Source of the DNA: a virus
Lineage: Duplodnaviria > Caudoviricetes
IMG/VR virus record: IMGVR_UViG_3300026549_000036
DNA length: 64,000 nt
Reading direction: 5' to 3' (one strand)
Shown: in pieces, positions 421-63,961 of the stretch
How positions within the stretch are numbered: the stretch's first letter is position 1
How the letters are laid out: every line of letters begins with the position of its first letter
Program-made: the position numbers and the translations under genes
Notes under the pieces: generated by a model
Database searches by the model: none
Seen by the model: the letters and a program-made list of their open reading frames with translations, nothing else
Told to the model about the DNA's origin: nothing

Positions 421-830
421 TAATGCTACAGTAAGCAGTATTTCCATTTCAAATGGTATAGTTTCAAATGGTACTGGAGTTACAATTTCCAATTTAGGGA
501 ATTACAATTACTATTATACTACTGCTAATCCAAGTATTACTAATGCTGTGTGGAGTGTTTATACAAACTATATGAAACCAAAATCATTTAAACTTCGGTA
601 ATACAACAGTTTGTGTTTACAACTGTGACAACAAGTACTTTATGGTTGATAATGTTCATTTTACTTTTGAAACGCAAGGCACAAATGTTACATTGAGAGT
701 GAGCACTTGCGGAACTACGAATTTGTCCAGTTTAGACGAAGTAAGAAACTACATAAAGTCAATGAAGATGTATTACTTAAAATGTAAGGAATTTGAAAAA
801 CAACTTGAATTAACTTCGGATTTCGCATAA
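344..830 (+). CDS. Hypothetical DF-tail protein requiring a +1 shift at CGG 596-598
   Basis: ...KSFKL CGG TAA. Skipping C596 gives GNTTVCVYNCDNKYF, which runs in frame into ORF 642..830 ending LELTSDFA. The start is uncertain. Confidence 0.6.
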
Positions 831-837
831 ATAAAAT

Positions 838-1002
838 ATGGGAATTATAATACTTTGTACGATAATGATTTTGTTTTGTTCAGCAGTTCTTTATACACTG
901 TTGAAAGATAGAACTTTTGACCAGTCTAATGTGATTGGTATGGTTTTGTGCAGTTTAACAATTTTATTGTCAACTGCGACAATTATTATGAAAATAATGT
1001 AA
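838..1002 (+). CDS. Small two-TM membrane protein
   Basis: 54-codon ORF MGIIILCTIMILF...IIMKIM with two hydrophobic stretches. Confidence 0.55.
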   Translation: MGIIILCTIMILFCSAVLYTLLKDRTFDQSNVIGMVLCSLTILLSTATIIMKIM

Positions 1003-1103
1003 GTTTAACTTGAAACAAAATTTAATAAAGTTTAAAATGGACGGGTTTACAACTTGCCCATTTTTTGTTATATTATAGATAGAACTTAAATGGAGAACAC
1101 TTA

Positions 1104-1814
1104 ATGAAGATTAACTCAAACTATCAAGATTATTATGATTCTGCGTTAGGGTCATTTTTGGGCTCCGAAGTTGTAATCAACAGAAAAGAAAAAGAAGTAG
1201 AAATTGGTAAAACTGAATTTCCAATTTTGTGCTATAATCGTATTCCAGATTGGCAAGCAGAAAAACAGACTGTAGAATTTAATGGAAGAAAGACCACTAA
1301 AGGTTATCCAATTACTTTGATTGGTTTTTGTGGTCAGTGGTTTTTCCATTGGCAAAAAGGACATTTGACTGATGATTTCCGAACTGTCATTGAACACAAG
1401 TATGTAACCTATGACGAACTCTTGAAGGACCATCAGGAACATACAATTTGTTATCAGTGGATGAAGTCTGTTAAAATGGAAGAACTGAATGACCCAAATA
1501 AAATCAAAGAATGGAATACTGACATTTTTGAAAAGTACGGTCCTGTGATTGTTATTCCTGAATATACGGGAATTCAAAAATGGATTAGAAGTACTGAATA
1601 CGAAACATACAAAGCACAGTTGTTCCCTAATTTGAAAAATTACGGATTTCAGCAGATGAAAGACCCATTTACTGCATTATGGGAACTGGAACATTGGTAT
1701 GACACTCACGCCAGACCAGACGAAGCTATTGTTCCTGTTGGTGACGATTTAACCAGATTGAAAGCATACGGATTTGATGCGAAAACTTCATTTAGAAAAT
1801 CAAAGGAGAAATAA
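1104..1814 (+). CDS. Hypothetical phage protein
   Basis: 236-aa ORF with GGAG RBS and an upstream TTTACA-17-TATATT promoter (1046-1074). Confidence 0.8.
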   Translation: MKINSNYQDYYDSALGSFLGSEVVINRKEKEVEIGKTEFPILCYNRIPDWQAEKQTVEFNGRKTTKGYPITLIGFCGQWFFHWQKGHLTDDFRTVIEHKYVTYDELLKDHQEHTICYQWMKSVKMEELNDPNKIKEWNTDIFEKYGPVIVIPEYTGIQKWIRSTEYETYKAQLFPNLKNYGFQQMKDPFTALWELEHWYDTHARPDEAIVPVGDDLTRLKAYGFDAKTSFRKSKEK

Positions 1815-61446: not shown

Positions 61447-62315
61447 TAGAAGATTTTATTGATGAACAGAAAACTACGAAGGAAAAGGTTCTTTTGGTGG
61501 ACCTTCATAATCTGAGTATGCGACATCTGTTCGCTCAAATTCCTGACCCAACTGACATATCTTACTCTGAATATAAAGTCGGGATGCTTATGAGTATTCG
61601 TAAACTGGCAAGAACATTTCAACCGGACAGAATTATTTTCTGCCGAGAATCACACGATGGTAACTGGCGAAAATCTATCTACGCAGATTACAAAGGTAAT
61701 CGTGCTGCGGCTAGAGAATCGTCAGTTATTGACTTTAATTCGTTTTTCCCAATTAACGAAAAATTTATTGAAGGACTTGAGAAATGTATGAAGAACTCTC
61801 AATTCTTGACTGTTCCACATTTAGAGGCAGATGATTTGATTGCTCTAACTGTAATGAACGAACCTAATTGGGATATTACTTTAGTTTCAACAGATAAAGA
61901 TTTCTACCAACTTCACGCTTACAAGAATTTCCATCAGTGGGACCCGATTAAGGAAGAATACATACAAGTTATGAATCCTGAAGCCGCACTAATGGAAAAG
62001 ATTGTTTTGGGCGACCGTGGTGATAACATTCCTTCATTAAAGAAAGGTGTTGGTACGAAAACCTTCGCTAAAATTTATAGTGAGGGCTTGAATGAATGGT
62101 TATCACTCAATATGCTTCAGGAATCATTTGACAGAAACACAAAACTCATTTCGTTTAGATGTATTCCTGAAGAATATAAATCTCAGGTCAAGAATATAAT
62201 TGAAGACTTTGAGAAACAACCATTTGACGCCAGAGAATTTTTCAATTTCATTATTGGAGAAGGTCTCGGTGCGTTTATGGATAAAGCAACTGATTTTATT
62301 AACACTATGAAATAA
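61443..62315 (+). CDS. rnh: T4-type RNase H / 5'-3' flap exonuclease
   Basis: LVD..N, WRK..Y..YKGNR, EADD, STDKDF.QL and GDRGDNIP motifs. Confidence 0.92.
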   Translation: MIEDFIDEQKTTKEKVLLVDLHNLSMRHLFAQIPDPTDISYSEYKVGMLMSIRKLARTFQPDRIIFCRESHDGNWRKSIYADYKGNRAAARESSVIDFNSFFPINEKFIEGLEKCMKNSQFLTVPHLEADDLIALTVMNEPNWDITLVSTDKDFYQLHAYKNFHQWDPIKEEYIQVMNPEAALMEKIVLGDRGDNIPSLKKGVGTKTFAKIYSEGLNEWLSLNMLQESFDRNTKLISFRCIPEEYKSQVKNIIEDFEKQPFDAREFFNFIIGEGLGAFMDKATDFINTMK

Positions 62316-62327
62316 GGAGACCAGAAT

Positions 62328-63431
62328 ATGGCTTACTATTACACTAAAACAAGTATCAAAATGACAAATCTCACCATCGCTTATAATATGGGCGGCTTAT
62401 TTGACCAGGAAGGACAGAGGGGCATTTCTCACCTGATGGAACATTTGGTATGCGAAACTTTTAAAGACGAATATCCTGAATTGGCAAAGTACAATGTAGA
62501 ATGGAATGCTTGTACTGGTTATGATGTAGTAAAGGTCTATTTCACAGGTTTGGATAAGTATTTCACTCCTGAATGGAAGCGTAGACTTGTGAACAAACTC
62601 ACTGGTGGTTTGAAAATGAGCAAGGAACGATTTGAAGCAGAAAAGAAGATTGTGCTTCAAGAATATATGGATTGCTTTAATGAACCAGCAAATTCCGAAA
62701 ACACAGTAAGACAGAAGTTTGGTTTCTACTCTCCGATTGGCAAGCGTGAAGACATTGAAGCATTCACATACGAAGATATGCAGGCATATTACGAAAAGCA
62801 CATGCGTAAGCCAGCAAAGATTGTTGAAGTTGGTCCGACAAAGACTGATTTCTCTGCTATCCCAATGCAGGAAGAATATGTTGTTCAACCAATGAAGCCA
62901 AAGTATAAGAAGGATTGGAAACTCCCACTTGAACCAACACCTGAAAACCAAAAGTGCGATGTTTCTTTCCTTTCCAAGAAGGCAGTAAATAAAGCCGATT
63001 ATCCAGCACTCGCTATCGCAATAAATATGCTTGTGAATGGACTTGAATCTCCAATGACCCACGAAATTCGTGAAGTCCGTCATTTGACTTATGGTGTATC
63101 TGGTGGCACAATTAAATTCATTTCTTACGCTTATCCAACCTTTGGTGCTACAACTGATAAGGAAAATAAGGATAATCTTGTGGACGCTTTCAAGTTCTTC
63201 TTTGATGACATTGAAAAGCATCTGGACAAGAAGCGTTTTGAAGATATGATTTGTAAGATTGAAGTTGACCGCGAACACGATAAGATTTTCAAGTACGCAA
63301 ATGTAGATAAAATCATCAACAAGGGTAAAATTCAGATTGGTAATGCCTATAATAAGTTGACCTTTGAAAAGGTGGTTGAAATCGCAAAGAAATACTTGAA
63401 GACCGAAAATTTTGAAATTATTATTGAATAA
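62328..63431 (+). CDS. M16 (insulinase-family) zinc peptidase
   Basis: GISHLMEHL (HxxEH), NA.T, E....LQE and REVRHLTY motifs. Confidence 0.88.
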   Translation: MAYYYTKTSIKMTNLTIAYNMGGLFDQEGQRGISHLMEHLVCETFKDEYPELAKYNVEWNACTGYDVVKVYFTGLDKYFTPEWKRRLVNKLTGGLKMSKERFEAEKKIVLQEYMDCFNEPANSENTVRQKFGFYSPIGKREDIEAFTYEDMQAYYEKHMRKPAKIVEVGPTKTDFSAIPMQEEYVVQPMKPKYKKDWKLPLEPTPENQKCDVSFLSKKAVNKADYPALAIAINMLVNGLESPMTHEIREVRHLTYGVSGGTIKFISYAYPTFGATTDKENKDNLVDAFKFFFDDIEKHLDKKRFEDMICKIEVDREHDKIFKYANVDKIINKGKIQIGNAYNKLTFEKVVEIAKKYLKTENFEIIIE

Positions 63432-63961
63432 TGATTGATGGAAGTTATACATTAAAACCACACGAATTGTGTTTTAGGCGTATCGGTGAATACGCCGAAA
63501 CACTCGGTTGTAATGTTGTTTATTATGATAAATCATTTCACATCTTTTATTGTGGTAAACAACTTTGCCATATTTGGTATAATGACCAGGATATAATGGA
63601 GAACTATGGTTCTATTCTTGACAGAGAAATTTACTATGTAGATTTAGCAGACCAATATATCCCTTATACTAAATGGGAGAAAGTTTGGTATAACATAAAA
63701 AGATTTTTCGGAAAAGCCGAAAATAATAAAGTGCTTATACATAAGAGGTGTCCTGGTGCTGTAACTAGACGTTTAATTCCTGACCACTATGGATGGGATA
63801 AGGAAACAATGGATAGTTATTTAAACAAAGGCACCGGAAATTATTACTTAAGCGAAGAAAAACTAAAAAATCTAATTAAGTTCTATGTTACAGAAAATAC
63901 AGTGAATGAAAAGCTATATTTGAATGGACTTAGAATCAAACAAATTAACGAGGATTTTTAA
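63431..63961 (+). CDS. DF-tail family protein
   Basis: Ends RIKQINEDF with TAATG coupling. Confidence 0.75.
   Translation: MIDGSYTLKPHELCFRRIGEYAETLGCNVVYYDKSFHIFYCGKQLCHIWYNDQDIMENYGSILDREIYYVDLADQYIPYTKWEKVWYNIKRFFGKAENNKVLIHKRCPGAVTRRLIPDHYGWDKETMDSYLNKGTGNYYLSEEKLKNLIKFYVTENTVNEKLYLNGLRIKQINEDF

Follow-up and report, generated by a model that had tools for sequence, protein, structure and literature searches.

An Asp-Phe-ending C-terminal helix shared by a large family of small proteins in an uncultured T4-like rumen phage

Why should dozens of small phage proteins with differing bodies end in the same short helix? This question is raised by a 64,000-nucleotide stretch of IMG/VR virus record IMGVR_UViG_3300026549_000036 (in the following, the window), for which a first reading of the letters alone, referred to here as the sequence-only reading, had described about 41 small open reading frames (ORFs) with a common K-rich helix and a terminal Asp-Phe (D-F) pair. 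The ending is called the DF tail and its carriers the DF family. After greedy removal of overlapping ORFs, 125 non-overlapping ORFs on the + strand were obtained, of which 46 contain D-F within their last seven residues, compared with about five expected from the dipeptide frequency. The earlier count was reproduced, since 41 of these 46, encoding 62–176 aa, carry the helix motif K-x6-[KR]-[LIM]-x2-[ILM]-x2-D-F followed by 0–4 residues. The other five (polB, a methylase, ORF 44698, a 636-aa nucleotidyltransferase and an RNase H-like gene) have other endings, such as L-D-D-F-F-V in polB.

A common tail on small proteins with differing bodies

For comparison, the nearest relative was used, genome G001 (210 kb, 56% complete, polB 99% identical), in which at least 118 of 415 ORFs, located on both strands, carry the DF tail. 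The family covers more than a quarter of the genes in this phage group. A consensus was derived from 143 unique tails of the window and G001, aligned on D-F with the Phe as position 0:

Position -15: K in 90%
Position -8: K or R in 95%
Position -7: L, I or M in 79%
Position -4: I, M or L in 99%
Positions -1 and 0: D and F in 100%

As conservation extends from -15 to 0, the motif, an amphipathic helix, comprises 16 residues and is more than a tripeptide. Arrays with a repeated overlap junction had also been claimed, and both were confirmed: DF-tail genes are arranged in arrays at 10784-14014, 25347-29165 and 59902-61446 (10, 12 and 4 genes, respectively), and the exact junction RAGGAYTTYTAATG occurs 11 times in the window, with 0 expected. 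The DF-tail ORFs of the window, assigned by the tail motif and, where given, by additional evidence, are as follows (class-A denotes the alpha-beta6-alpha body described below; other ORFs are cited by their first position):

642..830, +: DF-tail ORF of 62 aa with unclassified body; D-F followed by one residue, next start at a distance of 17 nt
6734..7072, +: DF-tail ORF, class-A, operon-terminal; promoter at 7075 directly follows
7870..8340, +: DF-tail ORF, 156 aa; AAA before Asp, uncoupled
10784..11140, +: DF-tail ORF, helical-looking body; paralog of 11861 and 13676
11140..11481, +: DF-tail ORF; left breakpoint of a two-cassette indel versus G001
11481..11861, +: DF-tail ORF, beta-rich; paralog of 12585, absent in G001
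11861..12202, +: DF-tail ORF; absent in G001
12202..12585, +: DF-tail ORF, class-A by body profile
12585..12971, +: DF-tail ORF, beta-rich; paralog by BLASTP
12971..13309, +: DF-tail ORF, class-A; absent in G001
13309..13683, +: DF-tail ORF
13676..14014, +: DF-tail ORF, array-terminal; promoter at 14037 follows
16419..16805, +: DF-tail ORF, class-A by body profile
16806..17081, +: DF-tail ORF, class-A; absent in G001, two extra residues, 1-nt junction change
19462..19911, +: DF-tail ORF, variant tail
19901..20284, +: DF-tail ORF, class-A by body profile
20253..20579, +: DF-tail ORF, class-A by body profile
22624..22980, +: DF-tail ORF, operon-terminal; C-terminal part of a single 177-aa ORF of G001
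24808..25080, +: DF-tail ORF, single membrane helix as body
25347..25724, +: DF-tail ORF, first of the 12-gene array
25724..26056, +: DF-tail ORF, class-A, modelled with AlphaFold2 (AF2)
26056..26400, +: DF-tail ORF, class-A by body profile
26397..26753, +: DF-tail ORF, class-A by body profile
26722..27147, +: DF-tail ORF, class-A; true start probably 26746
27144..27443, +: DF-tail ORF, class-A by body profile
27436..27798, +: DF-tail ORF
27710..28060, +: DF-tail ORF; translation probably starts within the tail codons of the ORF before it, G001 ortholog chimeric
28047..28355, +: DF-tail ORF, class-A; absent in G001
28352..28849, +: DF-tail ORF, 165 aa; four residues after D-F
28824..29165, +: DF-tail ORF, class-A, array-terminal; absent in G001
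34259..34648, +: DF-tail ORF, class-A by body profile
34645..35157, +: DF-tail ORF, 170 aa; orthologs at the same place in relatives down to 64% polB identity
40400..40762, +: DF-tail ORF; sub-threshold TetR_C-like match set aside
41496..41909, +: DF-tail ORF, beta-rich, modelled, operon-terminal; orthologs in L043, L044 and L047, down to 74% polB identity
48860..49258, +: DF-tail ORF, class-A by body profile
49255..49605, +: DF-tail ORF, class-A by body profile, uncoupled
59902..60297, +: DF-tail ORF; three residues after D-F
60418..60648, +: DF-tail ORF, 76 aa
60648..61073, +: DF-tail ORF
61045..61446, +: DF-tail ORF
63431..63961, +: DF-tail ORF, 176 aa

With the tails removed, BLASTP resolved three small paralog groups in the window and 110 clusters among the 143 sequences. 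An iterative profile built from bodies only, from which everything from K -15 onward had been removed, recruited 150 of 328 tail proteins and seven of 1092 controls; five of the latter proved to be members with variant tails missed by the pattern, and two have the body without the tail. This profile reached 17 of the 41 window members, which have the class-A body in common, and 29 of 115 members in G001. The remaining window members include beta-rich, helical and membrane bodies (ORF 24808-25080 encodes a single membrane helix, then the tail), and beyond the reach of the profile no body similarity was detectable with either BLASTP or the body profile. Furthermore, about half of the window members start with a short helix of the pattern hydrophobic-x2-hydrophobic2-x3-G-hydrophobic. 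A head-only profile scored above 5 bits in 30% of 79 G001 members without a window ortholog versus 4% of 207 non-tail ORFs (p = 1.7e-8), and a leave-one-out test of the motif on 20 hand-picked sequences, which is subject to selection bias, gave weak support. In G001, two adjacent class-A genes at 149618-150267 (L038:9618-10267, - strand) represent natural variants without a D-F tail.

These results describe a core of true paralogs together with many bodies that diverged beyond recognition or were replaced; duplication and divergence is therefore a simpler origin than separate tagging. The proteins had been called mostly unrelated. This description is accurate as far as architecture is concerned, since the tail sits on dissimilar bodies including a membrane protein, but it does not hold for the 17 window members, and about a quarter of those in G001, that share one body.

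The AF2 model of the class-A protein encoded at 25724-26056 (predicted local distance difference test, pLDDT, 90.8; predicted template modelling score 0.80) consists of a helix at residues 8-16, six strands and a 37-residue helix at 73-109. The protein encoded at 41496-41909 was modelled as beta-rich, with eight strands, two helices, no N-terminal helix and an end helix at 110-136. Scanning the 41 window members and 10 larger G001 members against Pfam and PHROG returned no hit at the curated cut-offs; sub-threshold matches of ORF 41496 to Gp23 (short) and of ORF 40400 to a TetR_C-like domain were set aside as noise. Likewise, Foldseek matched the class-A model to no entry of PDB and BFVD at E <= 0.001, the ESM Atlas returned unnamed viral clusters only, and the tail-only profile retrieved nothing from the PDB sequences. 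VIA-align listed generic alpha-beta sandwiches (frataxin-like, type III chaperone-like and immunity proteins) with a best Z of 5.3, which lies below the noise guide of the tool.

Outside the window, each of six same-clade polB loci (polB identity >=64%) carries the strict motif, with 39 occurrences in total, and none of the 31 sister-clade polB loci (polB identity <=54%) does. A scan with tail profiles, which had been proposed as a check, gave a matching picture: the full-length profile yielded 69 hits and the tail-only profile 93 hits in G001, and neither yielded a hit in two complete sister genomes (415,750 and 424,163 bp). Moreover, 63 of 1.84 billion representative proteins were retrieved at E <= 0.001 in a profile search, all being small proteins of the DF kind. 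The DF family is confined to one clade and organised in tandem arrays, both being features of a lineage-specific expansion. Mimicry of a motif of Fibrobacter, the probable host, was rejected, as no significant tail-like ends were obtained in two Fibrobacter genomes.

A family of about 35 zinc-ribbon copies in Bacillus phage G was called an 'unprecedented' expansion (Iyer et al. 2021, PMC7824862). Like the DF family, it consists of tandem small-paralog arrays confined to one phage lineage; there, however, a whole domain is shared, whereas the DF family shares the terminal helix. With at least 118 copies in the 210 kb of a 56%-complete genome, and thus in about half a genome, the latter far exceeds the ~35 of phage G and is possibly the largest gene family yet observed in any phage.

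Three other tail types were observed on other tandem small-paralog arrays of sister phages without the DF family. In sister locus L052 (14444-17529, - strand; 18726-22831, + strand), eight genes end in the G-I-L-K-I-P type and eleven in L-L-E-E-I-D-D, and a six-gene array of sister locus L054 (15522-17443) ends in the I-R-K-A-A-x-x-W/Y type. Literature searches retrieved no report of paralog families with a common tail in jumbo or rumen phages.

Selection, ribosome-binding sites and recombination at the tail

Conservation of the tail could reside in the protein or in the DNA, and both layers were recognized. The residue preceding the Asp is encoded with a strong bias: Glu is GAG in 72% of cases versus 8% genome-wide, Lys is AAG in 80% versus 39–40%, and Gly is GGA. 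Together with the GA of the Asp codon, these codons form RAGGA or GGAGA, the Shine-Dalgarno site of the next gene. The spacer from that GA to the next start measures exactly 6 nt in 73 of the 143 tails, and this spacing holds for the TAATG overlap (no extra residue) as well as for the ATGA overlap (one extra residue). Among the 101 coupled tails (start 4–9 nt away), 74 have a Shine-Dalgarno-forming codon, compared with only one of the 24 tails lacking a start within 20 nt; in the latter, the residue turns into K (AAA), E (GAA), S, Q, D, T or N. Hence, RAGGA is positioned at a constant distance almost exclusively in those tails that precede another gene, as in translational coupling, and the E/K of the (E/K)DF ending is largely a ribosome-binding-site feature.

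The D-F pair itself behaves differently. It is kept in 24 of 24 tails without a downstream start within 20 nt, among them the window genes ending at 7072, 14014, 22980, 29165, 41909 and 49605. At position -7, Leu is encoded by all six codons, at -8 Arg by CGN and AGA, and at -4 Ile, Met or Leu appear through ten codons; codon usage for Lys -15, Asp and Phe 0 is near background. In 31 ortholog pairs between the window and G001, the number of synonymous substitutions per synonymous site (dS) was 0.220 in tails and 0.216 in bodies, and the ratio of non-synonymous to synonymous rates (dN/dS) was 0.20 and 0.23, respectively. Silent sites are without extra constraint, and tails and bodies are real proteins under purifying selection. 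Based on these data, the claim of protein-level selection, for which conservation merely of a Shine-Dalgarno site would have been fatal, stands for D-F and the other conserved tail positions, with synonymous variation present and tail dS equal to body dS; it has to be withdrawn for the preceding E/K, which mainly reflects the nucleotide level. Gene conversion is an unlikely source of the tail similarity because synonymous codons are not homogenised. An arrest peptide or termination control was rejected as well, since uncoupled genes keep the tail and the stop follows D-F at a variable distance of 0–4 codons.

The DNA of the window and G001 is 88–98% identical, yet whole cassettes differ. ORFs 11481 and 11861 are absent together from G001, and 12971, 16806, 28047 and 28824 are absent singly. 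At each site, the two flanking alignments share 15–38 nt of the G001 sequence, and this overlap lies within the tail or the junction. In three-way alignments, the crossovers of the first three events were placed in the shared RAGGAYTTYTAATG-type junction, and that for 28047 inside the tail codons; as a result, G001 has a chimeric gene in which the 27710 body is fused in frame to the end of the 28047 tail. The suggestion that a shared 3' end might let cassettes recombine is thus in line with these breakpoints. As silent sites are not conserved, however, recombination looks like a by-product of the shared tail and not its reason. The tail codons represent a natural example of overlapping constraints: they encode a protein motif, supply the next gene with its ribosome-binding site and serve as a site of recombination.

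Two small differences from G001 were noticed in this context. ORF 16806-17081 has two extra residues after D-F (17060-17081), which result from a 1-nt change in the TAATG junction by which the stop was lost; some of the 0–4 extra residues are therefore junction slips. ORFs 22448-22627 and 22624-22980 (window 22448-22980) correspond to one 177-aa DF gene in G001 and are split by a 1-nt difference in an A run, which may reflect a genuine fission, a site of frameshifting or a mistake in the assembly.

A possible docking handle and its rivals

Regarding geometry, the alpha-beta sandwiches retrieved by VIA-align cover about residues 6 to 92–100 of the 110-residue class-A model and leave the last 10–18 unaligned. 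The positions of an upstream hydrophobic stripe (-30, -27, -23, -20, -16, -13) are three to four residues apart, which is compatible with packing against the sheet. Helical-wheel arithmetic on the tail frequencies places the tail stripe (-11, -7, -4, 0), flanked by K -15, K/R -8 and D -1, about 160 degrees away from it. The tail would accordingly form an overhanging, solvent-exposed helix tip, and its conserved charges, including an Asp near the helix C-terminus, would fit binding better than stability.

The tentatively preferred reading, to which a probability of roughly 45% is assigned, is that the tail serves as a projecting docking handle to one partner on a fast-diversifying family of putatively early genes. 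According to this proposal, the family would have grown by tandem duplication from an alpha-beta6-alpha ancestor with an overhanging long last helix. Bodies would have diverged, and some would have been replaced, under selection for different targets, and the overhang would have stayed unchanged as the handle plugging every member into one phage or host partner. The DF set would then be an adaptor or inhibitor library deployed right after infection. In line with this, bodies are conserved among orthologs and strongly different between paralogs. The proposal draws on the scale and clade specificity of the family, the protein-level constraint, the retention of D-F in uncoupled genes, the variety of bodies, the probable projection of the tail and the promoter setting, and T4-like phages offer two precedents for a terminal peptide common to several proteins, the clamp-binding epitope and the capsid targeting sequence (see below).

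Several points weigh against a docking handle. A common tail partner was not found. Projection of the tail was deduced from alignment ranges and periodicity and not read from coordinates, and the beta-rich model of 41496-41909 is uncertain, with one good model (pLDDT 84.5) and the other four at 47–57. Unlike most docking tails, which sit on flexible linkers, the DF tail rigidly continues the last helix of the body, and among orthologs it is conserved no more strongly than the bodies. Moreover, as arrays of sister phages have conserved C-termini of their own, strong C-terminal conservation may be a general array property that needs no shared hub; the recurrence of shared-tail arrays in this phage group cuts both ways for the hub idea.

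A more far-reaching version of the docking handle is doubtful. It holds that more than 100 early proteins with different target-binding bodies use one 16-residue helical handle to engage one machine (a protease, a phage assembly or the apparatus of transcription or replication, for instance), and that cassettes are shuffled in frame by recombination at the handle-coding DNA, constituting the largest paralog expansion known in a phage. Such a library would be a bacterial-virus counterpart of adaptor families of the F-box/PRANC type. The M16 peptidase encoded in the window was rejected as a clade-specific hub because it is also present in sister phages without the DF family, and ORF 61443-62315 was rejected as a peptidase, being an RNase H/FEN-like nuclease. 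Should the tail indeed act as a handle, identification of the single partner would open a functional route into more than a quarter of the genes in a ~400-kb rumen phage group, the DF genes at present all being hypothetical. It would also show that the take-over or anti-defence arsenal of a large phage is built from a constant plug and variable heads in cassettes exchangeable in frame.

The closest concept in print is provided by the internal proteins of T-even phages, diverse defence proteins sharing only a capsid targeting sequence (CTS) (Rao and Black 2010, PMC3012670). In both systems, diverse small phage proteins carry a short terminal peptide, and loci vary between relatives; the internal proteins are probably anti-defence, and the CTS is read by one partner. 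However, the CTS is N-terminal, comprises about 10 residues, is cleaved by the prohead protease and occurs on a handful of proteins per phage, whereas the DF tail is C-terminal, has no cleavage motif and belongs to genes behind early-type promoters. A CTS is an N-terminal peptide with an (L/I)-x-E prohead-protease site behind it, a layout that the C-terminal DF tail does not match; Glu at -2 is present in 47 of 143 tails and follows Shine-Dalgarno use instead of marking a cleavage site. The early-type promoter setting (see below) argues weakly against a packaging tag.

Among the competing explanations, self-association ranks first but is unlikely. Tails would zip members into homo- or hetero-oligomers and thus into combinatorial complexes without an outside hub, for which the heptad-like spacing of hydrophobics at -11, -7, -4 and 0, with charges at -15, -8 and -1 on the flanking face, speaks, as do the long helix predicted through to the last residue in both models and weak fold-search rows that include head-plus-stalk dimers such as PAXX. 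About two heptads with three to four hydrophobic positions are short for a stable coiled coil, however, and the flanking charges are mostly of the same sign (K, K/R) and lack complementary positions.

Next in order, and similarly improbable, is inheritance from one ancestor in which each protein needs the tail for itself (folding, solubility or helix stability), with neither a partner nor a tag. This accounts well for a body-only profile that recruits 150 of 328 tail proteins but hardly any other sequence, for the co-occurrence of head motif and tail (30% versus 4%), for uniform sizes and for the sister-clade arrays with conserved ends of their own. It accounts poorly for an identical tail on membrane-helix, beta-rich and helical bodies without detectable similarity, for a tail stripe facing away from the body-packing stripe and for an invariant Asp near the helix C-terminus, where it is not stabilising.

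Even less probable is a special case of docking, a tether to the sliding clamp, and hence to phage DNA, by means of a weakened clamp-binding motif resembling the PCNA-interacting protein (PIP) box. The PIP box has the form Q-x-x-[LIM]-x-x-[FY]-[FY], and the DF tail shares with it the aliphatic residue at position 4, the aromatic residue at position 8 and flanking basic residues; it differs in position 7 (Asp in 143 of 143 tails), in position 1 (mostly Leu; Gln in 5%) and in being predicted as alpha-helical over at least 14 residues. Aliphatic -4, Phe 0 and acidic residues in between also fall into the register of the polB tail L-D-D-F-F of this phage. Moreover, the clamp is a natural suspect in a T4-like phage, in which gp43, gp33 and gp55 share an interchangeable 'hydrophobic and acidic' C-terminal clamp-binding epitope (PMC2988020). 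Here again a short hydrophobic-acidic C-terminal segment is found on otherwise unrelated proteins, with an aliphatic residue four positions before the terminal Phe. The T4 epitope is carried by about three proteins on a variable linker and is read by one hub, whereas the DF tail is carried by more than 100 proteins on a rigid helix, and its hub is a proposal. Within this phage, the polB motif [LM]-x-x-F-F-x is kept in the DF clade and in sister clades; the DF family has the invariant Asp at the place of the first aromatic residue and no second aromatic residue, and its K -15, K/R -8 and L -7 are without counterpart in clamp motifs. Sister clades retain the clamp-type polB tail, and presumably the clamp, yet are without the DF family, and more than 100 competitors for three clamp sites seem costly.

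Finally, a signal in the nucleotides only (Shine-Dalgarno site, stop/start overlap, A-rich translation enhancer or recombination handle) would explain the GAG/AAG bias, the 6-nt spacer, a mild preference for A at the third positions of -8 and -5 and the breakpoints in tails, but it is hardly credible, having been largely refuted by the use of all synonymous codons at each conserved residue, equal dS in tails and bodies, D-F in all uncoupled tails and the fact that Glu, the better Shine-Dalgarno former, never replaces Asp.

Promoters, source phage and neighbouring genes

A scan for the consensus TTGACA-N16-18-TATWWT identified 11 sites in the window, all on the + strand, with 0.64 expected. Those in gaps after array-terminal DF genes or ahead of arrays are:

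7075..7103, +: early-type promoter TTGACA-N17-TATATT, in the gap after a terminal DF gene
14037..14064, +: early-type promoter after the first array
23022..23050, +: early-type promoter in the gap after a terminal DF gene
24271..24299, +: early-type promoter ahead of the DF genes at 24808-29165
29204..29232, +: early-type promoter after the second array
59902..59930, +: early-type promoter opening the third array

In T4, promoters matching the host consensus are a hallmark of early genes, and by analogy this setting suggests that DF genes are expressed early. Four of the promoters are preceded, some 38 nt ahead of the -35 box, by a perfect AT-rich palindrome, TTGTAAA-N4-TTTTAC (six matches, 0.57 expected), which might act as an operator, as an UP-like element or as a weak terminator:

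21359-21376, +: palindrome
22984-23001, +: palindrome
24197-24214, -: palindrome
29166-29183, +: palindrome

The long ORFs of the window are all located on the + strand, and its GC content is about 33%. The gp43-type DNA polymerase gene polB (919-aa ORF, 35942-38701) shows ~30% identity to cyanomyovirus polymerases and is accompanied by genes for UvsX, a gp41-type helicase, gp32, an RNA ligase and two DNA methylases, and furthermore by a GH10 xylanase, an SPFH protein and an M16 peptidase. Judged by polB and the surrounding replication gene content, the window corresponds to the part of a distant T4-like phage genome that holds the replication and early genes. The sizes of relatives reach 375–424 kb, and the source is an uncultured T4-like rumen phage of roughly 375–410 kb. 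The GH10 xylanase (604 aa, 49623-51437) represents a fibre-degrading auxiliary gene of the phage, and its C-terminus resembles a type IX secretion sorting domain. As its nearest cellular homologs derive almost all from rumen Fibrobacter (55–71% identity over the full length), Fibrobacter, a key rumen fibre degrader, is probably the host. To our knowledge, no cultured Fibrobacter phage is known.

Replication-type proteins of the window carry a separate, PIP-box-like tail, [LM]-x-[DE/x]-F-F-x, at the following positions:

38680-38701: polB
39362-39383: N6/N4 DNA methylase
41478-41499: N6/N4 DNA methylase
45070-45090: [LM]-x-[DE/x]-F-F-x tail
46760-46798: gp32
52095-52113: [LM]-x-[DE/x]-F-F-x tail

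The predicted, probably clamp-binding tail of the methylases, if true, would tether methylation to the replication fork. The M16 peptidase (62328-63431) is short (367 aa), has an intact HxxEH zinc motif and is 30–43% identical to its counterparts in sister clades. Finally, three insertions in the window (8506-10021, 32308-33544 and 58792-59878) are absent in G001. The first is an intein/HNH region inside a radical-SAM gene, and the other two match DUF7487 (endonuclease-like) genes at 32413-33570 and 58914-59867; all three behave like mobile homing elements.

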